Shown: positions 1-62,714 of the stretch, one piece after another
Numbering within the stretch: position 1 is the first letter of the stretch
How the letters are laid out: each line of letters begins with the position of its first letter
Virus record (IMG/VR): IMGVR_UViG_2931736537_000001
Location: 77,695-141,694 of that record
Source of the DNA: a virus
Taxonomy: Duplodnaviria > Caudoviricetes
DNA length: 64,000 nt
Direction: 5' to 3' (one strand)
Made by a program: the position numbers and the translations under genes
Notes under the pieces: generated by a model
The model's input: the letters and a program-made list of their open reading frames with translations, nothing else
Told to the model about the DNA's origin: nothing
The model's database searches: none

Positions 1-2
1 CC

Positions 3-19532: not shown

Positions 19533-19546
19533 GACGAAGCTCCCTC

Positions 19547-19960
19547 TTAGGCGCGGGCGAAGGTGAGGCTGGCGGTGGACTTGGCCACGGTGGCCGGGTC
19601 GAAGGCCACCGGCAGCTTGGCCGGGGCGATGAGGCCGTGGACGCGCAGCGCACCGCCGACGCGGGTGGAGCCGACGCCGAACTGGGTCTCCGTGTCGAGC
19701 AGGCCGGCGAAGATCTCGTGTCCGTCGGTGGCCGCGGGGTCGTACGGCTCGTACAGCCCGCTGGTGGTGTTGAGGGCGAGCGGCAGGCCGGACTTGAAGT
19801 GCGCCTCGACCGTTTTGATGCCGCGCTCCCAGTGGGTGTTCTCCGTGAACTTGGCGACGTCGAGGGTGATGGTCTGGTTGGTCTCGGTGCCGTGGCCGGA
19901 CAGCAGCCAGGGACGGCCAACCCTGAGCTGCTGGGTCGTGGTGATCGGCTGGATATCCAT
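19547..19960 (-). CDS. Head decoration protein
   Basis: SG.PLA..T.SGLY.PYD....DG.E..AGLL, VHG.I...KLP. Confidence 0.85.
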   Translation of the reverse strand: MDIQPITTTQQLRVGRPWLLSGHGTETNQTITLDVAKFTENTHWERGIKTVEAHFKSGLPLALNTTSGLYEPYDPAATDGHEIFAGLLDTETQFGVGSTRVGGALRVHGLIAPAKLPVAFDPATVAKSTASLTFARA

Positions 19961-20084
19961 GCCGGGGCTTCCTCCCGTTTCACGGGCGCTGCGGAAAGGC
20001 GGGGCACCGGGCGGTGCCGTCCACGGGGAGGAAGGGGGTGGGCGTGGTCCCAGGGGTGGAGCAGGTGGTGCGCGCGGCGGCCGG

Positions 20085-20915
20085 TCAGGCCGCCTTGTTG
20101 TCCGGGGTGCCGAACATGCGGGCCGCCATGGCGCGGCCGGCGTCGCCGGGCTTTCCGACGGGGGTCTGGCGCTGCGGCGGGCCGCCGGCCGGGGAGCCGC
20201 CCGGTGCGGGCGGGGGCGTCAGCTTCGGACCGCCCTCGTCGACGCCGAACAGGCCCGGGCGCCGCTTCTTGAGGTCCTTGGCCGCCTTCTTGATCGTGGC
20301 CTCGTCCGCGTCGGGGGTGTCCCGGAGTTCCTTGTCCAGCAGGACGAGGGCGTCCTCGAGGTCGGCGTCGCTGGCGCCGAGACCCATGAGGGTGGCCGTG
20401 CGCTGTGCTTCCTGCAGCTTGGCTTCGGCAGCGGCCAGCTTCTGGTCGGCGGCCGTCTCCTTCGCCGTGACGGCCTGCTCGCGCTTGGCGAACTCCGCCT
20501 GACGCTTCTGTTCGTCGGACAGCTGGGCTTCCTTGGCCTTCTTGGCGTCGGCGAGGATCTGCTTGATCTGCTCGGCGTCGACGGCCTCCGGGTCGAGTCC
20601 GGCCTCGGCGGCGAGGTCACGCAGGGCGGACTGCCGGCCCTGGTCCTTCTCCCGGGTCATCATCAGGTTCAGGCGCTTCTGGGTGAAGGAGACGGTCTCC
20701 TCTTCGCTTCCCCCCGGGTTGCCGCCGGGCTGCCGGTCGATGACGTCCTTCGGCGTGGGGGCCGGCGGCGCCGCGGGCGGAGCGGCGGGCGGGGTCGGCG
20801 GGTTGGGCGGGTCGTCCTCGCCGGAGCCGCCTGCGATGACGCGGACCGGGCGGCCGTTGACGTAGCCGACGATCGCGCCGGGTACGGGACGCGGTCGGGG
20901 GGTGCTGCGGTGCAT
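20085..20915 (-). CDS. Capsid scaffolding protein
   Basis: Pro-rich linker, FTQKRLN.MM.REK.QG, coiled coil; between portal and capsid; RBS GGAGG. Confidence 0.8.
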   Translation of the reverse strand: MHRSTPRPRPVPGAIVGYVNGRPVRVIAGGSGEDDPPNPPTPPAAPPAAPPAPTPKDVIDRQPGGNPGGSEEETVSFTQKRLNLMMTREKDQGRQSALRDLAAEAGLDPEAVDAEQIKQILADAKKAKEAQLSDEQKRQAEFAKREQAVTAKETAADQKLAAAEAKLQEAQRTATLMGLGASDADLEDALVLLDKELRDTPDADEATIKKAAKDLKKRRPGLFGVDEGGPKLTPPPAPGGSPAGGPPQRQTPVGKPGDAGRAMAARMFGTPDNKAA

Positions 20916-20943
20916 GCTGGAAGTCCTCCACCGGTGCGCCCCC

Positions 20944-20961
20944 GCGCCGTTTACGAGTGTA
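20944..20961 (-). promoter_or_regulatory. Putative late promoter motif (scaffold/capsid)
   Basis: Minus strand TACACT-CGTAA-ACGGCGC-GGGG. Confidence 0.45.
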
Positions 20962-20971
20962 GGGGTGATCT

Positions 20972-22819
20972 TCACTGCTGCTGTCCTGCGTCGTTGGCGC
21001 CGGTCTCAGCGGCTGCTGGGGCGGGCGGTTCGGAACGTTGGGCGCTCGGTCCGGTCAGTACGGGCACGGGCGGGTCGTCGGGGTCGGCGGGCTCCAGCCC
21101 CAGGTACTCCCGGACGGCGTCGGCGTCGCCGGTGGCGTCCGCGAGGGCGGCGGCCTGGTCGAAGGCGCGGGCCTGGATGCGTTCGATCTCGGCGGGGATG
21201 TCCTCGATCGGCCAGCCGCCCTCGGCGAGCATGCGCAGCGCGGTCTCCAGGCTGATGAGCCGGGCGGCGAACGCGGTGGCGACCTCCTCGAGGACGCCCA
21301 TGCGGTCGGTGGGCGTGTACGCGCCGAAGACGAGGGAGGCCGGGTGCACGGCGCGGCCGACCCAGTCGGGGTGCTGCCCGGCGATGAACAGCCGCTGCAC
21401 GAACCGCAGGAGGAGCTGGTACTTGTGCCGGCGGGCCAGGCGCATGGCGGCGACGAGCTTGTCGAGCGGGCCGAGGCTGATCTTCAGGGCGTACCCCGAG
21501 GGCATCTGCGCTGGGTCGTGGGTGCCCAGGGCGACCGCCGGGAGGCGGAGGTTGACCGCAGCGCGGTCGCGCAGGGTGTCCACGGTGGCCAGGAGCTGGG
21601 CGAGTTGGGGTGCGGTGTTCACGACGTCCATGCGCCCGCCGTCAGCCAGCTTGAAGACGGTGCCCGGCTCGACCTGGAGGCTGGCGCGGCCGTCCTGCAG
21701 CCCGGATACGGACAGGATCGGGATGCCGGTGGTCGCCGAGGCGCGGGCCGCGTCGGTGTCGGAGGCCGCCAGCTCGTCCAGGATCTGCAGGACCTTGGCG
21801 AGGGACGCCGTGCCCCAGTGCTCCCCGGCCGCGGGCACCGTGTTCGGGAGGTGGATCACCGGCACGAAGTCGATCACGAGGTCGAGCCCGTTGAGGACCT
21901 CGCCGTCGCTGCGCTGGGCGTAGGTGGCCTTGTCCATCGGCAGGTTGTCGACGTCGCTGGTGCGCTCGAGGTCCTCCAGCAGCCAGGTGGCGTCGGTCAG
22001 GTAGCAGGTGACGCTGGACGGCTCGTCGTTCCAGGCGTACTGCCGCCAGATCGTCCCGGCCTCGTCGGCGGCGTCCCCCTGGACGAGCTGCGGTTCGTCC
22101 TCACTTCCGGCCCAGGTGCGCTGGGGCCGGCCGTACCGGTCGGCGCTCGAGGTGGTGGCCGGCCGAATCGGACCGAGCTCGTAGGTGATGCGGCGCAGCC
22201 GGTCCTTCAGCCCGCGCCGGGGGTCGGCCGGCAGTTCCCACGCGAAGTGCACGCGCACCGGAAACTCTCCGTCGTCGTCGCCCAGCACTGGGAAGTAGAA
22301 GCCGGGATCCATCACACGGACGACCGGGCGCCGTTTGTCCGGCTCCCACGACAGCCGGTAGACGGCGTCGCCGAGGCCGACGGCCTTGCGCTCGGCCTGC
22401 AGCAGGCGCATGGGCAGTTGCTCGTCCTCTGCCCAGGTGAGGAGGTCGTCCTGGACGGCGCGGGCCTCTTCGGCGTCCGGGCTGTCGTCCTCGTCCTCGA
22501 CGCCGGCGACGACGATGCGCTGCTCGTCACCGAGGACGTCGGAGGTGATCGCCTCAATGAAGCTGGCCGGGTCTCCGTATTCACGCCGTTCACGGGCCTC
22601 GGGTCCGTCGCGCACCTCGGCGAGTTCGCCGGCCTGGTTGCCGTCGTAGGCGGCGAGGGTGGTGTACGCGGCCAGGCGCCGGACGTCGTCGTCGGGGACC
22701 CAGGTGGCGTAGGCGGACGGGAAGGCCCGGCGGTTGGGGTTGTTCGTGCTCGGGTCGGCGAACACCGGCTTGAAGTTCAGCCAGCCCCAGGTGTCGATCA
22801 GGAATTGCCGCAGGCCCAC
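20972..22819 (-). CDS. Portal protein
   Basis: 615 aa; GDAVYRLSW, DPGFYFP, DFVPVIHLPN, SGYALKIS.GPL, LISLETA; RBS GGAGG. Confidence 0.85.
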   Translation of the reverse strand: MGLRQFLIDTWGWLNFKPVFADPSTNNPNRRAFPSAYATWVPDDDVRRLAAYTTLAAYDGNQAGELAEVRDGPEARERREYGDPASFIEAITSDVLGDEQRIVVAGVEDEDDSPDAEEARAVQDDLLTWAEDEQLPMRLLQAERKAVGLGDAVYRLSWEPDKRRPVVRVMDPGFYFPVLGDDDGEFPVRVHFAWELPADPRRGLKDRLRRITYELGPIRPATTSSADRYGRPQRTWAGSEDEPQLVQGDAADEAGTIWRQYAWNDEPSSVTCYLTDATWLLEDLERTSDVDNLPMDKATYAQRSDGEVLNGLDLVIDFVPVIHLPNTVPAAGEHWGTASLAKVLQILDELAASDTDAARASATTGIPILSVSGLQDGRASLQVEPGTVFKLADGGRMDVVNTAPQLAQLLATVDTLRDRAAVNLRLPAVALGTHDPAQMPSGYALKISLGPLDKLVAAMRLARRHKYQLLLRFVQRLFIAGQHPDWVGRAVHPASLVFGAYTPTDRMGVLEEVATAFAARLISLETALRMLAEGGWPIEDIPAEIERIQARAFDQAAALADATGDADAVREYLGLEPADPDDPPVPVLTGPSAQRSEPPAPAAAETGANDAGQQQ

Positions 22820-22845
22820 GTCGTCCCTCCGGACAAGTCGGCCCC

Positions 22846-22863
22846 GCGCCGTGATCAAGGATA
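22846..22863 (-). promoter_or_regulatory. Putative late promoter motif (portal)
   Basis: Minus strand TATCCT-TGATC-ACGGCGC-GGGG. Confidence 0.5.
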
Positions 22864-22933
22864 TCGGCGCGGGCTGGCCGGTCCTGCGGGCGTGGCCCGG
22901 CCTGATCTTTCTCGGGCAACCTCCTTCCATCCT

Positions 22934-22950
22934 TACAACGTACCGTTGTA
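22934..22950 (+). promoter_or_regulatory. 17-bp palindromic operator, copy 1
   Basis: TACAACG-tac-CGTTGTA between TTCCAT and TATGGT. Confidence 0.85.
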
Positions 22951-22969
22951 TGGTCGAACCCGAGCCAAA

Positions 22970-22986
22970 GGCAACGGAACGTTGTA
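22970..22986 (+). promoter_or_regulatory. 17-bp operator, copy 2 (imperfect)
   Basis: GGCAACG-gaa-CGTTGTA-TAGT. Confidence 0.75.
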
Positions 22987-23030
22987 TAGTCAGCGCCGGG
23001 AAAGGCTCGCCCGGCGCGGGAGGAGAAACC

Positions 23031-23252
23031 GTGGAAGGCGCAACGCGGCCGCAGGGCCCCGCACACCCCGACGTGACGGTCCAGCTGTCCGGAGAAGACA
23101 GCAACGCGTACAACATCGTCGGACAGGTCTGCAGGGCGCTGCGACGGGCCGGACACCCCGAGGCGGCCTCGGAGTTCGCGGCGACGGCATTCCGGTCGAC
23201 GTCGCACGACGAGCTGCTGCAACTGGCCATGTGCACGGTCGACGTGCACTGA
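23031..23252 (+). CDS. Small hypothetical phage protein
   Basis: VQLSGEDSNAYNIVG.V.RALRRAG; RBS GGAGGAG. Confidence 0.75.
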   Translation: MEGATRPQGPAHPDVTVQLSGEDSNAYNIVGQVCRALRRAGHPEAASEFAATAFRSTSHDELLQLAMCTVDVH

Positions 23253-23263
23253 CACCCGGATCA

Positions 23264-23300
23264 GCGCGGTCCGCCCCGAGGCAAGCGGGGCGGACCGCGC
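23264..23300 (+). terminator. Hairpin with AGGCAAG loop, copy 1
   Basis: 15-bp perfect stem GCGCGGTCCGCCCCG/CGGGGCGGACCGCGC. Confidence 0.7.
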
Positions 23301-23330
23301 GTCCATCGTCGCAGATCGGAGACAGAGGAC

Positions 23331-23567
23331 ATGAGCGGCAAGCAGGAACAGCAGAAGGCGCCGGAAGTCTGGGGCTACGCGAAGGTCGCCGAGGTGTCCG
23401 GCGTGAAGGTGCCCACCCTGCGCCGGTACAAGAAGGAGGGCCACATGCCTGCCCCGGACATCGCCGTGGGGAACTCGCCCGGCTGGTTCCCGGCGACCAT
23501 CGAGAAGTGGCTCAAGGACCGCCCCGGCAGGGGCTTCCGGTCGGACCTGAAGGACCAGGACTCCTGA
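23331..23567 (+). CDS. AlpA/MerR-like HTH DNA-binding protein (candidate regulon repressor)
   Basis: YAKVAEVSGVKVPTLRRY...PAPD..VGNSPGW...TIEKW..DRPGRG. Confidence 0.8.
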   Translation: MSGKQEQQKAPEVWGYAKVAEVSGVKVPTLRRYKKEGHMPAPDIAVGNSPGWFPATIEKWLKDRPGRGFRSDLKDQDS

Positions 23568-23678
23568 CGCCGCCCAGCCCGCCGGCGCCGCCTCGACGCG
23601 CCCCCGCTCCCCCGCCGGAGCCGGGGCGCGCGGCGTTTCCGGAGGGGTTGAGGAAGATCAGAAAAGCCCTTCTCACCT

Positions 23679-23695
23679 TACAACGCAACGTTGTA
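23679..23695 (+). promoter_or_regulatory. 17-bp operator, copy 3
   Basis: ACCTTACAACG-caa-CGTTGTAAGGT, an extended palindrome. Confidence 0.85.
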
Positions 23696-23739
23696 AGGTT
23701 ATGGGAGAGGCCGGGCCCGCCGGCCAGGAGAGGAGTCCG

Positions 23740-24234
23740 ATGTTCACCGTCAGCCTGGACCTCAACGACCACGGCCTGCCCAAGAGCGACCCGCTGAAGG
23801 TCCACGCCGTCGGCGACTGGGTGCACGGCACGACCAGCATCCGGTACGCCTTCCACGACCCGGCGATCCACTTCCCCGACTCGGACTGCCCGATCACCGG
23901 CGTCCTGCTGATCGACAAGTACATCGACCCGGTCTACCGGGACGACCCGGCCGGGTACGACTTCGACGACGAGCCGGCCGTGTCGGTCAGCCTCGGCGAC
24001 CCCCGGGCCGCCGACGTGCACGACCAGATGCTGGAGGTCGGGGACTGGGGCCTCACCGGCCATGTGGTCTGCAGCGACCTGTACATGAACCCGGGACCGC
24101 ACCCGGACCACGCCGACCGGCACCCCTTCGACTTCCGCGTCGGCCTGGACGCCCCCACCCACCACCTGGCTGCGAGCCTCCTGCGGGCCGCCGCCTCCGA
24201 CTACGTGCAGCGCTGGAAGGCGGTAAGCATCTGA
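23740..24234 (+). CDS. Hypothetical protein (cassette gene)
   Basis: RBS GAGGAG; acidic, 164 aa; followed by hairpin GCGCCCCGG/CCGGGGCGC. Confidence 0.75.
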   Translation: MFTVSLDLNDHGLPKSDPLKVHAVGDWVHGTTSIRYAFHDPAIHFPDSDCPITGVLLIDKYIDPVYRDDPAGYDFDDEPAVSVSLGDPRAADVHDQMLEVGDWGLTGHVVCSDLYMNPGPHPDHADRHPFDFRVGLDAPTHHLAASLLRAAASDYVQRWKAVSI

Positions 24235-24300
24235 CCTGCGCCCCGGCAGCCCTCCGGGGCGCAGCCGCGTGAAGAAGATCGGCGTCACGACTTCCAACCT

Positions 24301-24317
24301 TACAACGCTTCGTTGTA
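24301..24317 (+). promoter_or_regulatory. 17-bp operator, copy 4
   Basis: TACAACG-ctt-CGTTGTA. Confidence 0.85.
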
Positions 24318-24361
24318 TTGTCGGGGTGCAAGGAACGGCCCGGCACCACGAAGGAGACGAG

Positions 24362-24616
24362 ATGGACCTCGACAACACCACCGCCGACCAGGTCTTCCAG
24401 GCGGCCAGTACGGCCACCTTCCGCAGGACCAACCTCGGGATGACTGCCGACGTACCGGTCGACGGCTACCGCTACCGGGTCATCGTCGAGGACCGCTACC
24501 TGGCCCACACCGACTGCCGGGAGGGCTACGGCGGCACCGAGTGGACCTACGCCAACGCCACCCAGGAGCAGGACCGGGCGCTGCGCGCGGCGATCGCCGC
24601 CCAGACCGCCAAGTAG
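24362..24616 (+). CDS. Hypothetical protein, paralog of 25516-25767
   Basis: MDLDNTTADQVFQAA...LGMTA...AT.EQDRALR.AIA; RBS AAGGAG. Confidence 0.8.
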   Translation: MDLDNTTADQVFQAASTATFRRTNLGMTADVPVDGYRYRVIVEDRYLAHTDCREGYGGTEWTYANATQEQDRALRAAIAAQTAK

Positions 24617-24622
24617 CCGGCC

Positions 24623-24667
24623 GCGGCGGGGGCTTGCCGCGAGGCAAGCGCGGCAAGCCCCCGCCGC
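24623..24667 (+). terminator. Hairpin with AGGCAAG loop, copy 2
   Basis: 19-bp perfect stem. Confidence 0.7.
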
Positions 24668-24697
24668 CCGGCCCGACCGTCCAGCGAGGAGGACACC

Positions 24698-25321
24698 GTG
24701 ACCGTCACCTTCACCGCCGCGCACCGCCCGCCCGTCGGCTACGCGGTCAGCTGCGGCTGCGACGAGGCCACCGCGCGCGCTCCGCGCTACGGCGCCTGGC
24801 GCGATGCACAGGACGCCGCCGACCGGGCCAACGCCGCGGCGGACGCCCGACGCCCCCTGCCCGGCTGCGCCATGCCCGAGACCTGCCCCGAGTACCCGCT
24901 GTACGCCGAGGAGGTCGACCCCGACGGGCGGGTGCCGGACGTGACGGTCTCGAGTATCAACGCCGTCGGCGTGCTGGAGGCCCTGGGGGTCGCGCTCGCC
25001 GCCGAGCCGGACGCCGCCGAGCCGGACGCCGTCGAGAGCGAGGCGCTCGAGGGCGGCATGCCCCTGGAGGCGCCGGAGGACGGCGTGGTCGTGCCGATCG
25101 CGGTGGTCGACGCCTGCGGCGAGCTGCCCGTGGAGGACTTCCGCGCGCGGGTGCTCACGGCCCTGGGCCTGGCGCCCGAGGACCCGGGGGTCCCGGGCAT
25201 CCAGCTCGGACGCACGTACGTGGGCGGGCGCCCGGCCGGGTACCTGCAGCGCCGCCTGCAGGACCTGTACGCGCTGGCGGACTGGTGCGCCGCACACGGC
25301 CGCGACGTGGCCTGGTACTGA
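24698..25321 (+). CDS. Hypothetical protein
   Basis: RBS GAGGAGG, GTG start; Cys-rich N-terminus; GYLQRRL..L..LA; followed by a GC hairpin. Confidence 0.75.
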   Translation: MTVTFTAAHRPPVGYAVSCGCDEATARAPRYGAWRDAQDAADRANAAADARRPLPGCAMPETCPEYPLYAEEVDPDGRVPDVTVSSINAVGVLEALGVALAAEPDAAEPDAVESEALEGGMPLEAPEDGVVVPIAVVDACGELPVEDFRARVLTALGLAPEDPGVPGIQLGRTYVGGRPAGYLQRRLQDLYALADWCAAHGRDVAWY

Positions 25322-25453
25322 CGGCCCGCCCCGTTCAGCCAGGGGCGGGCCGACCGGCCCGCACAGGCCCACGTCGGCAGGGGGCCGGCACTCCCGCAAC
25401 ATCTCTGACCTGCGGTTTTCTTCTGTAAATCCAGGCGACACGGGTTCCAACTT

Positions 25454-25470
25454 TACAACGCAGCGTTGTA
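25454..25470 (+). promoter_or_regulatory. 17-bp operator, copy 5
   Basis: TACAACG-cag-CGTTGTA. Confidence 0.85.
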
Positions 25471-25515
25471 ACGTCGTGATCGCCAGGAACGCACCGCCGC
25501 ACGAAGGGATACGAG

Positions 25516-25767
25516 ATGCACCTCGACCGCGTCACCGCCGACAAGGTCTTCGAGGCCGCCTGCCAGGCCCGGTTCCACCCCACCGGCCACCTCGGGATGA
25601 CCGCCCAGGTGTTCATCGACGAGTACACCTACCGGATCTGCATCACCGACGAGCGCCCCGCCCGCACCGACCTTCGGGCGGGCTGGGGCGACGCCGAGGA
25701 GGCCCTCGCCGAGGCCACCCCCGAGCAGGACCGGGCGCTGCGCGAGGCGATCGCCAGCCCTGCGTAG
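25516..25767 (+). CDS. Hypothetical protein, paralog of 24362-24616
   Basis: MHLDRVTADKVFEAA...LGMTA...ATPEQDRALREAIA. Confidence 0.8.
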   Translation: MHLDRVTADKVFEAACQARFHPTGHLGMTAQVFIDEYTYRICITDERPARTDLRAGWGDAEEALAEATPEQDRALREAIASPA

Positions 25768-25778
25768 CCACACCCCCA

Positions 25779-25811
25779 GGGGCCCGCCTCGAGGCAAGCG
25801 AGGCGGGCCCC
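25779..25811 (+). terminator. Hairpin with AGGCAAG loop, copy 3
   Basis: 13-bp stem GGGGCCCGCCTCG/CGAGGCGGGCCCC. Confidence 0.7.
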
Positions 25812-25879
25812 GCCGCCTGTGACGCAGGGCTCCGATCAGCGGGCTTCTTCAAGAGATCGGCCGACCCGACTTCCCACCT

Positions 25880-25896
25880 TACAACGCTCCGTTGTA
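25880..25896 (+). promoter_or_regulatory. 17-bp operator, copy 6
   Basis: TACAACG-ctc-CGTTGTA-TAGT. Confidence 0.85.
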
Positions 25897-25950
25897 TAGT
25901 TGTGGTGTTGGCAGGGCGGGGAACCGCCCACGGACGAACGAGGAGCGACC

Positions 25951-26289
25951 ATGGACAACACCAGGCGCCACGCCCGGATCTGCATCCACCTCGCACAGCG
26001 GGAGGTCACCGAGGCCCACGGTCCGGTGACCGACCTGGATGCCACCGAGCGCCGCTGGCGGCGCGAGGACCTGGCCTCCGCCTTCCGCGACTACCGCGAG
26101 ATCCGCGTACAGGGAGTCGGGGCGACCTGGCGCGAGGCCCTGCAGGACGCAGCCTCCCGAGGCCGCTTCAACCTCACCCCCTACGACGGCAACCTGGACG
26201 ACGCGCGCGACGCCCTGGCGCGCGGCGCCATATGGGACTTCACCGCCACCCCGAACGGGACGGCGCTCGTAGGCCCCCTGGCCTTCTAG
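25951..26289 (+). CDS. Hypothetical protein (cassette gene)
   Basis: RBS GAGGAG; 112 aa. Confidence 0.75.
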   Translation: MDNTRRHARICIHLAQREVTEAHGPVTDLDATERRWRREDLASAFRDYREIRVQGVGATWREALQDAASRGRFNLTPYDGNLDDARDALARGAIWDFTATPNGTALVGPLAF

Positions 26290-26461
26290 CCCGCCCCCCT
26301 GGCCGCCCGGCCCCCACCGGGCGGCCTTCCCCGTTGCGGCCAGCAAGCGGGGCGCCCGGCGCCTTCACGGGCGCACGTGACCCCGACCGGCCTCGATCCC
26401 GAGGTCGACGCTACGGGGCCGGCATGTCGGCCCAGGAAGATCGCGCACGCGCTTCCATCGT

Positions 26462-26478
26462 TACAACGCTCCGTTGTA
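26462..26478 (+). promoter_or_regulatory. 17-bp operator, copy 7
   Basis: TACAACG-ctc-CGTTGTA-TAGT. Confidence 0.85.
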
Positions 26479-26541
26479 TAGTTGATCTCGAAGGGGACGG
26501 GGAAGGCCCCCGGACCTTGATGCACACAGAGGGAGCGCAGC

Positions 26542-26754
26542 ATGCACGAGATGACGGTCGCCGAACTGATCGAGCAGCTCGAGGAGATGGACCCGGAGGC
26601 GACGGTGCGCCTGGCCATTCAGCCGACCTACCCCTTCGAGCACAGCCTCGCCAAGGCGGTCCAGGCCGAGGACGGCACCTGCTACCTCGCCGAGGGCGAG
26701 CAGCTGGGCTACCTCAGCGACCGGGCCAGCGAGGACATCGGCTGGGGCCGCTAG
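26542..26754 (+). CDS. Small acidic phage protein
   Basis: MTVAELIEQLEEMDPEATVRLA.QP.YPF; RBS GAGGGAG. Confidence 0.8.
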   Translation: MHEMTVAELIEQLEEMDPEATVRLAIQPTYPFEHSLAKAVQAEDGTCYLAEGEQLGYLSDRASEDIGWGR

Positions 26755-26765
26755 CTCGGACACGC

Positions 26766-26798
26766 AGGGCCCGCCCCGAGGCAAGCGGGGCGGGCCCT
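26766..26798 (+). terminator. Hairpin with AGGCAAG loop, copy 4
   Basis: 13-bp stem AGGGCCCGCCCCG/CGGGGCGGGCCCT. Confidence 0.7.
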
Positions 26799-26864
26799 CG
26801 CTTTCGTTGCCCCGCGGGCCCCCTTCGGGCCGGCCCGGAAAGATCCCGAACCGACTTCCATCGT

Positions 26865-26881
26865 TACAACGCTACGTTGTA
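26865..26881 (+). promoter_or_regulatory. 17-bp operator, copy 8
   Basis: TACAACG-cta-CGTTGTA-TAGT. Confidence 0.85.
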
Positions 26882-26931
26882 TAGTTGGGGTGCGAGCGGG
26901 GGACGGCCCCGGAAGACGGAAGGGAAGCGCG

Positions 26932-27156
26932 ATGCTGTACATGCTCAAGGAACTCGACTCCAAGGGCCGCATCTTCCAGGACGACGACACGACCGAGTAC
27001 TTCAGCGCGGCCGACTACGGCAGCGACGACGCTGCGAAGGCAGCCGCGATGGACGCGTACAACTGGCGGGTCCGCCAGACCGACGAGGCTTGGGGTGACG
27101 GGGTCGGCAAGACCCGGTGGACCCTCCTGGAGTGGGGGCCCGGGCCCAAGCCCTAG
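26932..27156 (+). CDS. Small hypothetical protein (cassette gene)
   Basis: RBS AAGGGA; 74 aa; followed by a hairpin shared with the convergent terL. Confidence 0.7.
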   Translation: MLYMLKELDSKGRIFQDDDTTEYFSAADYGSDDAAKAAAMDAYNWRVRQTDEAWGDGVGKTRWTLLEWGPGPKP

Positions 27157-27201
27157 CACTCACGCTCGCAGCCCCGGCCCGCCTGGCCGGGGCTGCGCCG
27201 C

Positions 27202-28761
27202 TCACCGGCGCCCGTTGAGGCGTCCGTCGCGGTAGCTGCCCGTCCCGCTGTCCACGGCCGCCGGGTTGGCCAGCTCGGTCAACGCGTGCACGCAGGCGTC
27301 CATCCGGTCCGGCGAGTCGAGACCCGGCATCCAGGTGACCATCTGTACCTCGAGCCCCGGCCACTCCCCCACGTGCCTGACCCGACCCTGCTCGTACAGC
27401 TGGGCGATCGGCTCGGCCCTCAACCTTTTGCCCTGCTTGGCGGTCACGGGCACGATCCGCGGGCGCAGCACGCCAGCGACCTCGGGACCCGCAGCGCGGA
27501 CCATCTCCTCCCAGCCCTGGACGAGCACCTGCCTCGTCATGTCGCCGCCGAAGTTGGACTCGACGACCATGGCGTCGGCCTGGACCTCGAGGGCGAGTTC
27601 GCACGCCGCTCGTCCCCAGTCGGCGGCGCCCATCTTCCCTGAGCGGTCGGCCAGGACGTACAGGTTCCCGGCCGCGTCGCGTCCGGCGGCCACGATGCCG
27701 ACCTCGTCGCTGTCCTCGCCGCCACCGGCCGGGTCCACGGCGACCACGACCCGGGTGAGCTGGACGCCGCGCAGCTGCTCGGCGCTGACGCGGTGCCGGC
27801 GGATCCACTCCCACTTCCAGATGCCACCCTCGAGCGGCCTGGGCTGCTGCTGGTACAGCGCCCACCAGCCACGCTCCCCGACCTCGTCGCGGAAGTCCTG
27901 CAGGTGCTCGAGGCCGAACCGCTCGGGCCACAGCGGCTCGCCGAGGGCGCGGCCGAGGGCGTCGTCGGCGCTGTCGGCGATCGCCGGCAGGTTGATGACG
28001 GTCCAGCGGGCGCTGTCCCGGGCGGCGTCCTGCGTCAGGATGCGGCCAGCCAGGTCGTTCTCACTCCAGCGGGTCTGGATGACGACGATGGACCCGTTCG
28101 GCTCCATACGCGTGTTGAGGACCTGCTGCCACCAGTCCCACAAGTCGCCCAGCACGGTCGGGGAGGCCGCGGCCTTCGCGTCCTTCAGCGGGTCGTCGAC
28201 GATGGCCAGGTGCGCGCCCATACCGGTCAGCGAGCCGCCGACGCCGGCGGTGACGAGGCCACCGGGCCCGCCGGTCAGGTCGAAGCGCCCGGCCGCCTTG
28301 GAGCCGTAGCGCAGGGATATGCCGAGCTGGTCCTCGTACTCGTTGATGGAGTCGCGCAGCCAGCGGCCGTGTCCCTCGGCGAGGACCGCGCTGTAGGAGG
28401 CGATCATCAGCCGGTGGGTAGGGTTGCGCCGCAGGTACCACAGGGGCGCCCAGCGCGCCGCGCGCTGCGACTTGCCGTGCCGGGGCGGCATGTTCAGCAG
28501 CAGCCGGACTCGTTCACCGCGGGCGATGCGGATGAACGCCTGGTCGATGAGGTTGAGGTGCCGGGCCTGCAGCTCCCGGCCGTTGGTCAGCAGCGCGGCC
28601 AGGGACCCCGGGGAGCGGTCCATGGCCATCTCACGCTCGACCTGGGCCAGGCGCATGCGCATGTCGGGTGAGGCGCTGCGGGCGATGGCCAGGCGTTGCT
28701 GGCGGGGCAGCGTGCGGTAGCGCTTGAGGAGACGTTCCTCCTGGTCCGGCGCCTGCATCAT
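27202..28761 (-). CDS. terL: Terminase large subunit
   Basis: Walker A MPPRHGKS, Walker B AIVDDP, IQTRW..DL.G, ALYQQQP, VAVDPA, SPDRMDA. Confidence 0.95.
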   Translation of the reverse strand: MMQAPDQEERLLKRYRTLPRQQRLAIARSASPDMRMRLAQVEREMAMDRSPGSLAALLTNGRELQARHLNLIDQAFIRIARGERVRLLLNMPPRHGKSQRAARWAPLWYLRRNPTHRLMIASYSAVLAEGHGRWLRDSINEYEDQLGISLRYGSKAAGRFDLTGGPGGLVTAGVGGSLTGMGAHLAIVDDPLKDAKAAASPTVLGDLWDWWQQVLNTRMEPNGSIVVIQTRWSENDLAGRILTQDAARDSARWTVINLPAIADSADDALGRALGEPLWPERFGLEHLQDFRDEVGERGWWALYQQQPRPLEGGIWKWEWIRRHRVSAEQLRGVQLTRVVVAVDPAGGGEDSDEVGIVAAGRDAAGNLYVLADRSGKMGAADWGRAACELALEVQADAMVVESNFGGDMTRQVLVQGWEEMVRAAGPEVAGVLRPRIVPVTAKQGKRLRAEPIAQLYEQGRVRHVGEWPGLEVQMVTWMPGLDSPDRMDACVHALTELANPAAVDSGTGSYRDGRLNGRR

Positions 28762-28801
28762 CAGGGGCTCCGTGCACCCCCGCGCACCCTTACATGATCT
28801 C

Positions 28802-29203
28802 TCAGATCGGCGGGTCTTCGATCAGCGCGAGCAGTTCCTCCAGCTCGTCGTCGGTGACGGCCGCGGGGTCGGAGAGCGTGCCGGTGCTGTCCATTCGGGC
28901 CGGGACGCCGAGACCGAGGCGGCGTTCCCGGCTGTCGAGGATCGCCAGGGTCGCGGCGATGGCGTCGAGGTTGCCGGCGGCGGCGCGGTGCCAGATGGCG
29001 TGCTGGAGTTCGTCCAGCGAGTGCTGGTCGGCCTGGTGACGGGCGGCGGGCTCGAGCGGGTCGGCGTCGTCGAGGGCCGCGGCGAACGCCGCGGCGGCGC
29101 TGGCCGTGTCCGGGTAGTCCAGCTCCTGGGCGAGCGACTCGAAGTCGTCGCCGGCCAGGCGGCGGCGGATGAGTTCCGCCTGCCGCTGGTCGAGGTGCCG
29201 CAT
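28802..29203 (-). CDS. Terminase small subunit-like HTH protein (copy 2)
   Basis: RRLAG.DF..LA..LDY, LDELQ.AIW.RA..GNL.AI...L.I.D.R.R.LGL; similar to 31005-31472. Confidence 0.6.
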   Translation of the reverse strand: MRHLDQRQAELIRRRLAGDDFESLAQELDYPDTASAAAAFAAALDDADPLEPAARHQADQHSLDELQHAIWHRAAAGNLDAIAATLAILDSRERRLGLGVPARMDSTGTLSDPAAVTDDELEELLALIEDPPI

Positions 29204-29216
29204 GCTGCCCTCCCGG

Positions 29217-30266
29217 TCAGAGGACCTTCTCCCGCAGGGTCTGGGCGATGGCTCGCATCAGGAGCGGCGGCACGGAGTTGCCGATGCGCGCCCACACCTT
29301 GTCCACTGGGCTGTCTCCCCAGTCGTAGGCGTCGGGGAAGGACTGCAGGCGGGCGAGTTCCCGCACGCCCAGCAGGCGGTCCTCCTCGGGATGGAGCAGG
29401 CCGTTGCGGGAGGCGGAGACCTCCTTGATGAGGGTGTAGGACGGCTTGTCCCAGGCGAGGCGCTCGAGGGAGAAGAACGCCTTCTTCCCGCCGAGGTCCA
29501 GCAGCGTGTCGCCGCCGTTGCGGCCGGGCGGGATGAGGGGCGCGACGCGGGCGGCCTTGCCGGAGGGCCGCTGGAACGGGCCGGGGTCGTCCAGGCCGGC
29601 CAGGGCCTCCCGGACGGTCAGCGGCCGGTCGATGGGTGCCGGGTGGACGGGGTCCAGACCGAGGTCGCGGCGCACGCCGATGAAGATCATGCGCATGCGC
29701 TTCTGGGGGACGTGGAAGTACGAGGCGTCGACCAGGCGGGCGACGACCCGGTACCCGGGCCCGGCGGCCTTGAGCGCGCCGAGGATCTCCGCGAACAGGG
29801 AGCGCATCTGGCCGCGGACCATGCCGGCCACGTTCTCCATGACGAAGCACTTCGGCTGCCAGTGCTCGATGCACCGGATGTACTGCCGGAAGAGCTGGTT
29901 GCGCGGGTCGTCGATCTGCCGGCGCCCGACGGTGCTGAACCCTTGGCAGGGTGGGCTGCCGTCGAACACGTCCAGCTCGCCGGGCGCCAGGCCGAGGCCG
30001 ACCGGGTCCAGGGCGGCGATGTCGCCGTGGTGGAGCGGGACGTGGGGGAAGTTGCGTCGGAAGCACGCGGCGGCGTGGTCGTCCCATTCCACGGCGAGCA
30101 GTTCTCGGTATCCGGCCATGGAGTAGCCCAGGGAGCTGCCGCCCGCGCCGGCGAAGGTGGAGACCACGGTCGGTGCGTCGTCGGCGCGCGGCGCGAGGTG
30201 CGCCTTCCAGGCGTCGGCGAGGATCCGGCTGTAGTCGAGCCGGGTACGGACGACGCGCGGGCTCAC
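29217..30266 (-). CDS. DNA (cytosine-5) methyltransferase
   Basis: FAGAGG, GSPPCQGFS, MENV, PQ.R.R, RE.ARLQSFP, IGNSVPP. Confidence 0.95.
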   Translation of the reverse strand: MSPRVVRTRLDYSRILADAWKAHLAPRADDAPTVVSTFAGAGGSSLGYSMAGYRELLAVEWDDHAAACFRRNFPHVPLHHGDIAALDPVGLGLAPGELDVFDGSPPCQGFSTVGRRQIDDPRNQLFRQYIRCIEHWQPKCFVMENVAGMVRGQMRSLFAEILGALKAAGPGYRVVARLVDASYFHVPQKRMRMIFIGVRRDLGLDPVHPAPIDRPLTVREALAGLDDPGPFQRPSGKAARVAPLIPPGRNGGDTLLDLGGKKAFFSLERLAWDKPSYTLIKEVSASRNGLLHPEEDRLLGVRELARLQSFPDAYDWGDSPVDKVWARIGNSVPPLLMRAIAQTLREKVL

Positions 30267-31472: not shown

Positions 31473-31486
31473 GGGTCAGCCCCCTG

Positions 31487-32761: not shown

Positions 32762-32783
32762 GGCAACTCCGTCCACCCCCACA

Positions 32784-32801
32784 GTGCCGTGATCCATTTT
32801 C
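32784..32801 (-). promoter_or_regulatory. Putative late promoter motif (MTase/terminase operon)
   Basis: Minus strand GAAAAT-GGATC-ACGGCAC. Confidence 0.45.
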
Positions 32802-32880
32802 CCCGAGCGCGGCGGTTGTCGAGGCGGGCGTCGCGTGGCGGTGGTTCGGCGAAGGATCTCGGCTCCACCCCTTCCAACCT

Positions 32881-32897
32881 TACAACGCTCCGTTGTA
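32881..32897 (+). promoter_or_regulatory. 17-bp operator, copy 9
   Basis: CTTCCAACCT-TACAACG-ctc-CGTTGTA-TAGTTGGGG. Confidence 0.85.
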
Positions 32898-32937
32898 TAG
32901 TTGGGGTGTGAGGACGACCCGCCCCAAGGAGGCCCCG

Positions 32938-33288
32938 ATGCAGCGCACCGCCACCGCCCCCACCTGCCGCCGCTGCTGGCGCCCCCTCAGCTCCGCCCGC
33001 TCCATCGCCACCGGCTACGGCCCCACCTGCCTGCGAAAGGTCAAGGCCGCCGCCGAGACCCACGCGCAGACCAGCGGCCACAAGCCCGCCCAGGTCGCCA
33101 AGGCCACCGAGCTGATCGAGCAGGGCGCGGTGATCCCCCTGCGGGCCCGCCGAGTCTTCCAGGTGGTCGCCTCCGACGGCCTCACCACCTACAAGACGGC
33201 CGCGCAGGCGTGCACCTGCCCGGCCGGGCGCCGCGGCGAGCACCTCTGCTACCACCGCATCGCCGCCCAGATCCTCATCGCCGCATGA
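32938..33288 (+). CDS. DUF6011-like + SWIM-like zinc-finger protein
   Basis: C..C.RPL....S...GYGPTC and CTCPAG.....CYH; RBS AAGGAGG. Confidence 0.75.
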   Translation: MQRTATAPTCRRCWRPLSSARSIATGYGPTCLRKVKAAAETHAQTSGHKPAQVAKATELIEQGAVIPLRARRVFQVVASDGLTTYKTAAQACTCPAGRRGEHLCYHRIAAQILIAA

Positions 33289-33347
33289 CCGCCCTGCGGG
33301 CCCGCCGCACGGGCGGGCCCGCACCGACCCTCACGGAGGACAACCCG

Positions 33348-54261: not shown

Positions 54262-54513
54262 TTACGAACTGGAGGCGCGGCGGCCGCGACCGGGCCGGTT
54301 CGAGATCCAGGCGTCGATCGTCGACTGCTGCCACGCCGGCGACCGGCCGAACTGCCCGTCGGGGAGCGGCAGATCCTGCGGACGCACAGACTGACCCTCT
54401 GCGATCCGCTTGCGGGTGCGCTTGAGATACATCCGCACCGTTTCGGCCGTAACGCCGATCTTGGCAGCCACCGCTTCGGTGTCGAGGTACGGATTCCCGT
54501 CCGGCACGTCCAC
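54262..54513 (-). CDS. AlpA-like HTH regulator, paralog of 23331-23567
   Basis: AVAAKIGVTAETVRMY...PLPD.QFGRSPAW...TIDAW...RPGRG. Confidence 0.8.
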   Translation of the reverse strand: MDVPDGNPYLDTEAVAAKIGVTAETVRMYLKRTRKRIAEGQSVRPQDLPLPDGQFGRSPAWQQSTIDAWISNRPGRGRRASSS

Positions 54514-61436: not shown

Positions 61437-61958
61437 TCAGGAGGAGGCGTGGCCGAAGAAGAGCCAGCCGGTGTGCTTCAGCGGTCCGCCCTGCAGCGGG
61501 ACCTGGAGCGTCCCGGCGTACGGGCGTCCGGTGCGGGGGTGGGTCTCGTACATGCCCTGGATGCCGTACGCGGGGCGCTCCCCGTCCTTGAGTTCGCCGC
61601 GCGCGGTGAGGACGGCGACCGCAGCCTTCTCCAGGCTCTCGAAGCCGCCCGCCGGGGCGTTGTCCATGGTGAAGGTGACCTCCACCCGGCGCCGGTCCGT
61701 CAGTACGGGTATCGCACCGGCGGGCCCCCACTTGTCGGAGATGCGGGGGTCGTCGGCGCCTATCAGTTTGGAGGCGTACGCCTCGGCTTCGTCCAGGGGC
61801 ATCGGGGTCTGGGTGATGACCGTGAACGCGTCCTTCTCGGCGATGGTGCCGGTGTAGCCGCCGTGGCCGTGCTCGTCCTGGGCGTCCTCGACGGCGGCCC
61901 AGAAGGCCTTCTCGACGCCGGTTCCGTCCTGGTAGGTGCTGAAGTCGTAGGCGCCCAT
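61437..61958 (-). CDS. Hypothetical phage protein (operator-controlled)
   Basis: GHGGYTGTIAEK, DKWGPAGAI, WLFFG.ASS; RBS GAGGAG. Confidence 0.75.
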   Translation of the reverse strand: MGAYDFSTYQDGTGVEKAFWAAVEDAQDEHGHGGYTGTIAEKDAFTVITQTPMPLDEAEAYASKLIGADDPRISDKWGPAGAIPVLTDRRRVEVTFTMDNAPAGGFESLEKAAVAVLTARGELKDGERPAYGIQGMYETHPRTGRPYAGTLQVPLQGGPLKHTGWLFFGHASS

Positions 61959-61997
61959 GTTGCTCCTCGGTTCGGTGGTCTACCGCCCTCCCAACTA

Positions 61998-62014
61998 TAC
62001 AACGCATCATTGTA
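61998..62014 (-). promoter_or_regulatory. 17-bp operator, copy 10 (one mismatch)
   Basis: Minus strand CTTCAACTT-TACAATG-atg-CGTTGTA-TAGTTGGG. Confidence 0.8.
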
Positions 62015-62146
62015 AAGTTGAAGCGCAGCAGGCTCCTGAACTGGGCTTTCGCGAAGGCGCCGGGTGAGGCACCGAAGGGCCGGCGCGCGGCGCGAACGCC
62101 GAAGCCCCGCCGCGCCGTGGCGCTGCGGGGCCCGGTCCTTCCCGAC

Positions 62147-62527
62147 TCACGCGAAGGTGGTGTGGAAGTGGGTGGCGATCTGCGAGAGGCGGCTGGCGGC
62201 GTCGGCCCGGGCGTCCGGGTCGGTGATGTCGGCCAGGGGGAACTTCCGGGGGCTGTGCGGGTGGGGGTGCGGGGTGAAGTCGGGGCCGGTGAGCATCAGC
62301 GTGCCGGTCAGGAAGTAGTCGCCGACGTGCAGGCCGGTCAGCCGGTAGCCGCTGGTGTCGCCAGGCCGGCCGAGGCTGATGGTCACCGCGTGCCGGTCGG
62401 GCTGGCCGAAGTAGGCGGGCATCACGTGGATGGTGTCGGTGTCGATGCTGTAGAGGGCGTGGCCCAGGTCCTTGAAGTAGCCGATTCGGGCGGTAGTGCC
62501 GTCGTCGAAGGTGGCGAAGGTCTGCAT
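62147..62527 (-). CDS. Hypothetical protein (operator-controlled)
   Basis: RBS AAGGAG; 126 aa. Confidence 0.7.
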   Translation of the reverse strand: MQTFATFDDGTTARIGYFKDLGHALYSIDTDTIHVMPAYFGQPDRHAVTISLGRPGDTSGYRLTGLHVGDYFLTGTLMLTGPDFTPHPHPHSPRKFPLADITDPDARADAASRLSQIATHFHTTFA

Positions 62528-62570
62528 GGCGGTTCTCCTTGCGGTTCGTTCGGTCGCTACACCCCGACCA

Positions 62571-62587
62571 TACAACGGAACGTTGTA
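62571..62587 (-). promoter_or_regulatory. 17-bp operator, copy 11
   Basis: Minus strand AAGATC..CTTCCATCTT-TACAACG-ttc-CGTTGTA-TGGT. Confidence 0.85.
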
Positions 62588-62714
62588 AAGATGGAAGCGG
62601 CTTGGGGATCTTCTTCCGGCGGCCCGGCCGGCGTACGCGGCCCGGACACGGAAGAGCCGCCGGACCGGGCGGTCTCGGCGGCTCGGGAAGGCGGGGCTGC
62701 GGCGTGTGCGCCGC

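Follow-up and report, generated by a model that had tools for sequence, protein, structure and literature searches.

An array of small antisense gene cassettes headed by a shared operator-bearing promoter module between portal and terL in a phage-plasmid lineage of Streptomyces

This article describes nine small genes that lie between the portal gene and terL of a large phage-plasmid, together with the promoter module, with a predicted operator built into it, that heads seven of their units. The stretch analyzed, hereafter the window, is 64,000 nucleotides (nt) long, has a G+C content of about 72%, and corresponds to positions 77695-141694 of IMG/VR record IMGVR_UViG_2931736537_000001. The whole record (141,694 bp, rated 97% complete) is called G000; positions are those of the window unless marked as G000 positions. 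The nearest annotated relative is a plasmid of Streptomyces sp. NA02950 (151,949 bp), with 85.7% identity across 75% of window 19000-31000. Its annotation combines phage genes (capsid, head decoration, tape measure, terminase, holin, and LysM lysin) with plasmid-type ones (ParB, AAA ATPase, FtsK-type translocase, and integrase) and also lists several DNA methyltransferases. Matches in NA02950 were found for 118 of the 188 called G000 genes, and 89 of the 188 are matched in all three complete relatives. This mixture of phage structural and lysis genes with partition and transfer genes on one extrachromosomal replicon marks the element, judged by gene content, as a phage-plasmid, as an earlier interpretation made from the letters alone (the sequence-only reading) had assumed.

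Genes were called in six frames from the G+C content at third codon positions (GC3). Between portal and terL this yields nine genes on the + strand (GC3 0.86-0.98) and none on the - strand, which makes the array and terL convergent and the array and portal divergent. The label "portal" is a putative one, which follows the sequence-only reading and the position of the gene (at the NA02950 portal site, beside capsid genes). Seven units open with the repeat; genes B (23331) and E (24698) are without individual promoters and stand behind A and D, respectively. Behind each of the nine genes, at a distance of no more than about 35 nt, lies a GC-rich hairpin of -28 to -54 kcal/mol that has no U tract. 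The array had been described as a row of self-contained promoter/operator-gene-hairpin cassettes, a description that these modules and hairpins uphold. The seven units also stand, but the further copy at 22970 is the second operator of a tandem pair, 36 nt downstream of the one at 22934, rather than an eighth unit. With their own predicted promoters and terminators, their place between structural genes, and their variability among relatives, the units have the properties of morons.

Four of the array hairpins carry the loop AGGCAAG (at 23279, 24642, 25792, and 26779) on stems that differ by compensating changes; elsewhere in the G000 record, the loop tops only one other hairpin. It also follows the G cassette of the related contig L013 and occurs at three places in L009, including after its G cassette, with variants in L007 and L006. 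The coordinates of the features are collected in Table 1.

Table 1. Coordinates of the portal-terL array, the outlying modules, and related features (window positions unless marked G000; aa, amino acids)
Feature	Position	Strand	Remarks
Portal, putative (615 aa)	20972..22819	-	Left border; GC3 gene call; 75-96% identity in 7 relatives
Module P_A	22904..22956	+	GATC, TTCCAT, palindrome 22934-22950, TATGGT
Second tandem operator	22970..22992	+	GGCAACGGAACGTTGTA, 2 mismatches, then TAGT; tandem pair in 7/8 elements
Gene A (73 aa)	23031..23252	+	phrog_1933; hairpin 23258-23304
Gene B (78 aa)	23331..23567	+	MerR/BldC/Xis-type winged helix-turn-helix (HTH); candidate regulator; hairpin 23585-23636
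Module P_C	23649..23701	+	Palindrome 23679-23695; -10 TAAGGT
Gene C (164 aa)	23740..24234	+	Orphan; 78-93% identity in 6 relatives; hairpin 24236-24264
Module P_D	24271..24323	+	Palindrome 24301-24317
Gene D (84 aa)	24362..24616	+	Orphan; hairpin 24619-24673, AGGCAAG loop
Gene E (207 aa)	24698..25321	+	Orphan; no promoter of its own; hairpin 25323-25351
Module P_D'	25424..25476	+	Palindrome 25454-25470; no GATC; -10 TAACGT
Gene D' (83 aa)	25516..25767	+	D paralogue; hairpin 25779-25811, AGGCAAG loop
Module P_F	25850..25902	+	Palindrome 25880-25896; TATAGT
Gene F (112 aa)	25951..26289	+	Orphan; in 8/8 elements; hairpin 26301-26326
Module P_G	26432..26484	+	Palindrome 26462-26478; TATAGT
Gene G (70 aa)	26542..26754	+	In 8/8 elements; other slot in L007 and L013; hairpin 26757-26806, AGGCAAG loop
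Module P_H	26835..26887	+	Palindrome 26865-26881; TATAGT
Gene H (74 aa)	26932..27156	+	Orphan; hairpin 27168-27196
terL (519 aa)	27202..28761	-	Right border; "terminase family protein" in NA02950 annotation
Outlying module	32851..32903	+	Palindrome 32881-32897; divergent from methyltransferase-to-terL operon
DUF6011/SWIM-like gene (116 aa)	32938..33288	+	ATG 40 nt after palindrome; regulon member in 4/4 complete elements
B paralogue (83 aa)	54262..54513	-	39% identity to B, 85% to NA02950 orthologue; rival candidate regulator
173-aa orphan gene	61437..61958	-	Behind 61998 module; regulon member in 3/4 complete elements
Outlying module	61992..62045	-	Palindrome 61998-62014, 1 mismatch
126-aa orphan gene	62147..62527	-	Behind 62571 module; regulon member in 4/4 complete elements
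Outlying module	62565..62620	-	Palindrome 62571-62587
TGATTGC-N3-GCAATCA copies, probable parS sites	G000 2229, 30570, 30618, 31530, 31678, 33217, 33381, 34267, 34324, 36217, 41847		Outside window

The repeat is built around the palindrome TACAACG-N3-CGTTGTA (TACAACGNNNCGTTGTA). Allowing up to 2 mismatches, the window holds 11 matches, whereas each of 100 dinucleotide-preserving shuffles holds none; these are the copies that the sequence-only reading had named, plus the one at 22970, so that its total of 11 is confirmed. A scan of the whole record at up to 3 mismatches gave 18 matches, 15 of which are of the promoter type. The three others (G000 17550, 24437, and 101614) have 3 mismatches, are GC-rich, lie inside genes, and were discounted as chance matches. 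Four promoter-type copies lie beyond the window, at G000 3421 (- strand), 10415, 47769, and 66183. All 15 sit within a predicted sigma-70-like promoter, and for 14 of them a gene of matching orientation has its start codon 40-81 nt downstream, which extends to the whole record the earlier statement that the copies precede a small gene and share its orientation (those at 61998 and 62571 are on the - strand, as are their genes).

Aligned by orientation, the 15 copies match across about 65 bp. The order is GATC (usually (A/G)AGATC), about 11 nt, cTTCCA(a/t)C, 3 nt, the palindrome, (T/A)(A/G)GT, and often TGGGGTG, where the (T/A)(A/G)GT completes a -10 element of the form TA(t/a)(a/g)GT. The palindrome begins 3 nt after the TTCCA(A/T) hexamer, and its final TA forms the first two bases of the -10 element. 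The operator thus lies inside the predicted promoter, as had been proposed; it does not occupy the 18-bp spacer exactly but takes up 15 of the 18 positions and extends into the -10. In three copies that lie outside the array, the -35 element deviates: G000 10415 has a good TTGACT with a 16-nt spacer, and G000 66183 and 3421 have weaker hexamers. An E. coli-type promoter scan detects one of the seven array promoters and misses the other six because of their weak -35.

Among 32 nonredundant array modules from six elements, palindrome positions T0, C2, A3, T12, T13, T15, and A16 are present in all 32, as are the -10 bases G19 and T20. The arms as a whole are nearly invariant and the -35 region is close to it, while the three central palindrome bases are free. 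Invariant arms around a free center are, at the level of sequence, the signature of a dimer-type operator laid over a promoter. The geometry (a 17-bp 7-3-7 dyad overlapping a promoter) is that of a lambda-type CI/Cro operator; no divergent cI-like gene adjoins any of the sites. With about 15 copies of one operator-bearing promoter, seven of them heading the array, one DNA-binding protein therefore probably switches the whole gene set together.

Two further features of the module deserve mention. GATC occurs 23-35 nt upstream of the palindrome start at 10 of 14 sites (tandem copy 22970 being omitted from the count), where the background chance is about 0.13 per such interval; it is missing at 25454 and 61998. 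Examples lie at 23656, 24277, 25855, 26439, 26842, and 32855, and GATC is also found near the left end of the mobile G unit discussed below. It could be an UP-like element, a second protein site, a methylation switch (the element encodes several DNA methyltransferases), or a junction. At G000 3421-3437 (-), a full promoter/operator module is followed by no credible open reading frame (ORF), and a hairpin (GGCCCACC...GGTGGGCC) lies about 140 nt downstream, so this module could drive a small RNA under the same operator. A search of Rfam (E up to 0.1) gave no family in window 22000-34000 or around G000 3421.

To place the array in its lineage, we compared it with seven further elements, found by a terL search, that contain both terL and portal: NA02950 (L006), IMG/VR contig L007, and five contigs of Streptomyces assemblies (L009-L013). 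An eighth match, L008, stops inside terL and was left out. The complete or near-complete elements compared are G000, NA02950, G003:C5, and G004:C8. In all eight elements, the window included, the portal-terL gap measures 1.9-4.7 kb, and every gap holds ORFs on the strand opposite terL with palindromes at the cassette starts. ORFs in the relatives' gaps were called only on that strand; the NA02950 annotation lists seven opposite-strand genes there plus one small gene on the other strand. The presence of array and operator throughout makes the array, by sequence comparison, ancestral to the lineage rather than a recent insertion, and the earlier wording of an "inserted" array is misleading in that respect.

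Beyond these relatives the likeness fades. Seven other Streptomyces plasmids of roughly 87-93 kb share only a diverged part of the element (a capsid gene match in six, the portal region in one), and the more distant 93-kb plasmid-phage NBC_01353 has neither motif nor array. As to the records themselves, G000 1-5317 corresponds to 148.5-151.9 kb and 0.3-1.3 kb of NA02950, so the two are circularly permuted relative to each other; genes at both ends of the "linear" NA02950 record adjoin in G000, and the records alone do not settle ends or topology.

The content of the array, on the other hand, varies. Protein clustering gives the following cassette orders, in which a slash marks a promoter module: A B /C /D E /D' /F /G /H in the window and L009; B /C /D E /F /G H in L006 and L010; A B /C /D E /F /G I in L011; B /F /G I in L012; A B /G J /C K /D E /F /H in L007; and A B /G J /C /D E /F /L H in L013. 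B, F, and G are found in all eight elements. D' is 54% identical to the window's own D and 66% identical to the NA02950 allele of D. The comparison of relatives thus bears out that cassettes differ by whole promoter-to-terminator units. In L007 and L013 the G unit has been relocated while keeping its own sequence from about GAAGATC through promoter, 5' leader, and gene to the AGGCAAG-type hairpin. Homology with its old neighbors stops just upstream of GAAGATC, which places the break upstream of the whole promoter and outside the palindrome.

Does the repeat itself mediate this traffic? Outside the palindrome, module flanks share 52% identity when orthologous cassettes are compared across elements (121 pairs), 44% when the various cassettes of a single element are compared (105 pairs), and 42% as background (708 pairs). 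Promoter and gene therefore move together, with no homogenization of the repeats; concerted evolution of the repeats was rejected on the same figures. Together with the position of the G break, this means that the gain, loss, and duplication of cassettes foreseen by the sequence-only reading is seen as differences in whole units, but recombination within the repeat is not shown. Over short time scales the array is stable: contigs of four other, near-identical strains (43-81% of the array 31-mers) are colinear with it and break only at repeated stretches. Rearrangement at the contig joints was considered and dismissed, as the joints are short matches to other module copies. In gene E, at about 24997, a 15-nt repeat (five codons) is present in the window in one more copy than in the four other strains aligned, all of which lack these 15 nt.

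The same data bear on the idea that the repeat serves chiefly at the level of DNA, in cassette movement, partition, or replication (integron-like or parS-like), and that its promoter appearance is secondary. The whole-unit differences and the left end of the relocated G unit near the conserved GAAGATC fit this idea, yet all 14 oriented G000 copies point at a downstream gene or transcript, the flanks are cassette-specific, and, unlike in an integron cassette array (where an integrase adjoins promoterless cassettes that end in an attC site with crossover in its core), no recombinase gene lies beside the array, each cassette has its promoter, and the G break falls outside the palindrome. G000 also contains a better parS candidate, a second 7-3-7 palindrome family (TGATTGC-N3-GCAATCA) with 11 intergenic copies at up to 1 mismatch, mostly clustered around ParA/ParB-like genes; these copies are probably plasmid centromere (parS) sites. 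We therefore hold a DNA-level role to be very unlikely and return to the repeat as an operator-bearing promoter.

The quality of the array operators differs among elements. Perfect palindromes make up seven of eight array operators in G000, none of six in NA02950, one of six in G003:C5, and none of three in G004:C8. Outside the array the numbers are four of seven, four of 10, five of eight, and four of eight, respectively, i.e., equally good in all four. Control of the array may, from its operator sequences, be looser in NA02950, G003, and G004. A change in specificity, with B co-varying with operator quality within the lineage, was rejected, the operators outside the array being equally good in all four elements.

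The operator is also confined to the element. We scanned five whole Streptomyces assemblies, those containing L009-L013 (7.8-9.9 Mb each, about 45 Mb together), at up to 1 mismatch. They hold 14, 13, 12, 7, and 13 sites, and the reversed control gave none. All 59 sites lie on eight contigs, five with the terL locus and three that align to G000 over 36-98% of the stretches compared; no chromosomal site was found in the five host genomes. An IMG/VR scan for the palindrome followed by TAGT matched only two relatives. G000 has about 15 of these promoters and each of the three other complete relatives 11-16. Behind the sites, the four complete elements share orthologous genes (the array, the DUF6011/SWIM-like gene, the 126-aa gene, and, in three of the four, the 173-aa gene), plus several element-specific small genes. 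By sequence, then, the switch is a regulon private to the element, in line with the earlier proposal of a single regulon, and the lack of chromosomal sites points to an element-encoded regulator. A host transcription factor whose regulon signal was borrowed by the element is the least probable reading that we weighed: the half-site may resemble the AAC/GTT-type boxes of actinobacterial regulators, an indirect point in its favor, but a host regulon would be expected to have some sites on the chromosome, where the five genomes hold none at up to 1 mismatch.

Which element protein might read the operator? The gene that the sequence-only reading put forward for testing, the HTH gene at 23331 (B), has come out as the best candidate regulator and, from its position and sequence, is most likely the operator-binding protein. 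It encodes the only DNA-binding protein found within the regulon, belongs to the first cassette, is present in all eight elements, and stands behind the tandem operator in seven of them. B scores 23.6 bits against Pfam MerR, below the cut-off of 28.2, and a profile of seven B orthologues has the MerR structure 5crl as its best match (E 2.7e-4). A model based on 32 family members reaches a mean predicted local distance difference test score (pLDDT) of 77, with about 88-91 over residues 11-60. Its best neighbors in the PDB are the DNA-binding domains of MerR-family proteins (CadR, HiNmlR, MtaN, and CueR), RdfS excisionase, and BldC. The model superposes on such structures at about 2-3 Å over 50-60 residues, and on the CadR, HiNmlR, and CueR domains at about 2 Å over about 50, which suggests a MerR-like fold at Foldseek E-values that are weak (at least 0.013). 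The coiled-coil dimerization helix and the effector domain of MerR proteins are not found in B, whose model ends in a short helix and a disordered RPGRG tail; the C-terminal tail RPGRGxRxDL is conserved.

The resemblance to MerR, both in the winged HTH of B by sequence and fold and in the dyad between -35 and -10, raises the possibility that B acts in the MerR manner, i.e., that it remodels a poor promoter from the spacer dyad and the cassettes come on only when B is made. This would suit the MerR-type HTH, the placing of the dyad between the two promoter hexamers (the hallmark of MerR operators), the weak array -35 (TTCCAA), and the long 18-nt spacer. However, MerR promoters have spacers of 19-20 nt, where those seen here are 16-18 nt: 18 nt in the array and 16 nt at G000 10415 and in two loci from other phages described below, L097 and L116. 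In these three the -35 is a good TTGACT or TTGACA and the same kind of dyad is carried, so the promoter needs no MerR-style distortion. Moreover, the dyad is off-center and overlaps the -10, the 78-aa B has neither coiled coil nor effector domain, and two dyads at B's own promoter would give a runaway positive loop. Activation of this kind is accordingly improbable in our view, and repression by B is the reading that we carry forward.

Homologues of B in other phages provide a test of its association with the operator. The family is broad, with 213 isolated phages (annotated as "HTH DNA-binding protein / excise") and 162 IMG/VR stretches. From the 162 relatives found by scanning IMG/VR with the B alignment, 79 loci were kept, three of this lineage and 76 others. 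The dyads sought were of the 7-3-7 type, had at most 1 mismatch and no fewer than six A/T in the arms, and ended in a TA that opens a TAnnnT. Three matches lie in the 60.8 kb that are up to 800 nt upstream of a B homologue and on its strand, versus one in the remaining 797.6 kb on both strands (three of four near B, with 0.28 expected; binomial p about 0.0014). They read TGCATCGTTGCGATGTA-tggt in L071, TTGACA-a-TGCATCGGCACGATGTA-ttct in L097 (with a second imperfect copy 57 nt upstream), and TTGACT-t-TGTCACGCGACGTGATA-aagt in L116. Their register is that of G000, their arms differ from it (TGCATCG, TGTCACG), and the genes between operator and B homologue are unrelated (63 aa; 157 aa; 41 and 49 aa). 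Thus the conserved pair appears, at the sequence level, to be the operator plus the B gene. Each of these records has one full copy of the dyad, or two in the case of L071 when a 2-mismatch match is counted, and it appears that the lineage of G000 has multiplied the operator.

Several observations nevertheless weigh against B as the operator-binding repressor. Outside the lineage, 73 of the 76 B-family loci have no such dyad, and as L071 and L097 share an operator type, the positive cases amount to two or three independent ones. Among four isolated phages inspected, Rosebush, Sonali, and P1312 have no comparable dyad, and DinoDaryn offers, in the matching register, no more than a 4-3-4 dyad (CCCG-TAT-CGGG) within TTGACG-N17-TATAGT. 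A promoter and the first regulator-like gene behind it may also stay linked by descent alone, as cro does with OR. Within the lineage, the presumed recognition helix of B varies among the eight elements (KVPTLRRY, AVGTVRYY, SVDTLRFY), while the operator arms are constant. B has no dimerization helix, and some of its homologues are annotated "excise". BldC, the nearest characterized small relative, reportedly binds direct repeats head-to-tail (PMC5859096), whereas the G000 site is an inverted repeat.

Other regulators of the element must be considered as well. G000 and NA02950 have in common a MarR-like protein with two winged helices, two WhiB-like proteins, a GntR/UTRA protein, B, the B paralogue, and a 370-aa winged-helix protein. 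The recognition helix of GntR/UTRA is invariant in three of the four complete elements (the N-terminus in G003 is cut by the gene call), and that of the second domain of the double winged HTH (wHTH) MarR-like protein in all four; both facts also count against B. These proteins could supply a separate master repressor (the B paralogue, GntR/UTRA, the MarR-like double-wHTH protein, or an unrecognized small protein) that shuts the operators in the plasmid-prophage state, with B as a Cro-like protein, an excisionase, or cargo. Invariant recognition helices would match the invariant operator arms, and the B paralogue is 85% identical between G000 and NA02950. Precedent exists too, since dedicated repressors usually govern multi-operator regulons, as in P1 and L5 and in R4 (PMC10276819). 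Yet none of these candidates adjoins or follows an operator in the four complete elements, and the usual autoregulatory link is seen for B only. A separate master repressor is hence a minority view, which we regard as doubtful while taking it seriously.

Two more proteins were examined as array repressors and rejected, neither being conserved across the elements that keep the operators. The LexA homologue (LexA_DNA_bind plus Peptidase_S24, 220 aa; G000 60553-61215, +, outside the window) has its own SOS-box-like dyad, TCGAAATCTTGTTCC, upstream. Versions of this protein occur in G003 (76%) and G004 (69%), but NA02950, where the operators are kept, has none. For the 412-aa XRE protein, the sole match in the other complete elements is one of 25% identity in G003; NA02950 and G004 have none. 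As to the B paralogue, it lies in a region (54040-55942) with a 1.4-kb gap in the gene call. By homology with NA02950, this region holds the paralogue and the start of the 370-aa winged-helix (HTH_36) gene (54830-55942, +); the two are divergently arranged, and the region is likely, from its gene content, a replication or control region.

Binding, repression rather than activation, and timing are what we infer from this anatomy. Each repeat would be a housekeeping-type (HrdB/sigma-70-like) promoter with the 17-bp operator in the spacer and the first two -10 bases. An element-encoded protein would bind the operator as a head-to-head pair and block RNA polymerase; if this is B, two molecules on the dyad would occlude the -10 and the spacer. 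Naive DNA that enters a cell by infection or by TraB-type conjugation would carry no B, and all promoters would fire, much as the sequence-only reading supposed for arrival in a repressor-free cell. B would then accumulate and shut all of them, including its own doubly operated one, settling at a low autoregulated level. As B lies inside its own regulon, repression by B would give a self-limiting pulse rather than a classic prophage-repressor switch, and the logic would be the same for infection and for the TraB-type transfer of double-stranded DNA. That an element protein, most likely B, represses about 15 housekeeping-type promoters through the 7-3-7 operator, as one regulon with a self-limiting pulse, is the account that we favor, with somewhat more confidence than doubt.

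A fuller version can be sketched, which is possible but distinctly more tentative. Here B, a minimal MerR-type protein of the BldC/Xis class, would be a palindrome-binding autorepressor whose operator guards its own small operon in other actinophages and has in this lineage been copied onto about 15 promoters, creating an "arrival pulse" regulon for infection and conjugation. Units running from GAAGATC through promoter and gene to the hairpin would travel whole and gather in a fixed antisense slot between terL and portal, where convergent transcription could delay read-through of the late operon. Polymerases transcribing the late genes from terL toward portal would need to traverse 4.4 kb of cassettes in antisense orientation, with their nine hairpins; a timing device of this kind is speculation on our part.

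What the pulse would deliver is suggested by analogy. All cassette proteins are small, and several appear acidic by eye. Eight of the nine have no match to a family of known function in Pfam, PHROGs, NCBIfam, and PADLOC; the library matches are phrog_1933 for A, an HTH for B, and weak N-terminal PHROG matches for G. Homologues of A occur in 202 phage records (117 Mycobacterium, 40 Listeria, and 24 Arthrobacter), near the right genome end among the Mycobacterium phages listed. Two different Gordonia phages, represented by three records of about 135 kb, have relatives of G. For C, D, E, F, H, and the outlying 126-aa and 173-aa proteins, the same four libraries gave no match of known function. 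An ESM Atlas search with C returned no usable match, and the AlphaFold model of C has a pLDDT of 41. Roles as host-takeover or anti-defense factors are plausible for such proteins by analogy only.

A few other genes are of note. A 199-aa protein without a family match (G000 61809-62408, +, outside the window) ranks seventh in conservation among the core proteins (80-88% identity across the four elements), is more conserved than its neighbors, and in G004 sits in an operon behind a palindrome-bearing promoter. At 58046-59523 the window carries lower-GC3 cargo (an isochorismatase-family protein and an FAD-dependent oxidoreductase) with no counterpart in the three other complete elements.

Regulons in which one protein serves many operators are already known, as are moron arrays, and G000 varies on both themes. 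In the phage-plasmid P1, C1 reportedly controls well over ten promoters across the genome, many of them heading small accessory operons. G000 resembles it as a phage-plasmid in which one protein would act on many scattered promoters. P1 differs in its asymmetric 17-mer operators, monomer-like C1, and dedicated immunity region, where G000 has a perfect 7-3-7 dyad, half of its sites stacked in an array, and a 78-aa MerR-type candidate inside the regulon. The Streptomyces temperate phage phiC31 is said to have many copies of 17-bp conserved inverted repeats (CIRs), bound by the repressor, next to near-identical early promoters. The likeness lies in the multi-copy 17-bp inverted repeat and the look-alike promoters; on the other hand, early promoters of phiC31 are not known to be sigma-70-like, its CIRs are located next to them and not within them, and its repressor is a large protein made in multiple isoforms.

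The morons of lambdoid phages, reportedly described by Juhala, Hendrix, and colleagues in 2000, are promoter-gene-terminator units that lie between conserved late genes and vary among relatives. Classical morons have individual promoters and are expressed from the prophage; in G000, seven are lined up on the opposite strand and share a single operator. Plasmids offer a further parallel. In the kil-kor regulon of RK2 (IncP), autoregulated plasmid repressors act on operators within numerous strong promoters, behind which lie small genes whose function is unclear, and kil-kor, like the anti-defense islands in the leading regions of conjugative plasmids, gives a burst of gene expression on entry into a new cell, although the proteins and sites involved are unrelated to those of G000. 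Conjugation in Streptomyces moves double-stranded DNA, so no single-strand promoters are needed. Finally, mycobacteriophage L5 (cluster A) and the Streptomyces phage R4, with their repressor-stoperator systems (PMC10276819 and PMC9283540), also have many copies of a short intergenic site in an actinophage, read by one phage protein. Stoperators are asymmetric, orientation-dependent, located within transcribed regions, and halt elongating polymerase, whereas the G000 site is palindromic, lies upstream of the predicted start, and overlaps the -10.

In short, the differences from known systems are the perfect 7-3-7 dyad built into a predicted sigma-70-like promoter, the seven units stacked in a conserved antisense terL-portal slot, and the minimal MerR/BldC/Xis candidate regulator. 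Our literature search, which had most subscription journals and supplements outside its reach, found no description of the element, motif, or array. For the poorly studied large phage-plasmids of Streptomyces, the finding provides a compact parts list: a 17-bp operator, a promoter module of roughly 65 bp, and a 78-aa candidate regulator. Should B bind the dyad, a defined role would fall to the actinophage "HTH DNA-binding protein / excise" family, and its operators would become readable as a code, whose arm so far holds CAA, CAT, or TCA. In Streptomyces engineering, the module could find use as a switch that is tight and portable. The regulon also singles out about 20 orphan genes as co-regulated, a natural starting point in the search for establishment, host-takeover, or anti-defense functions in Streptomyces.

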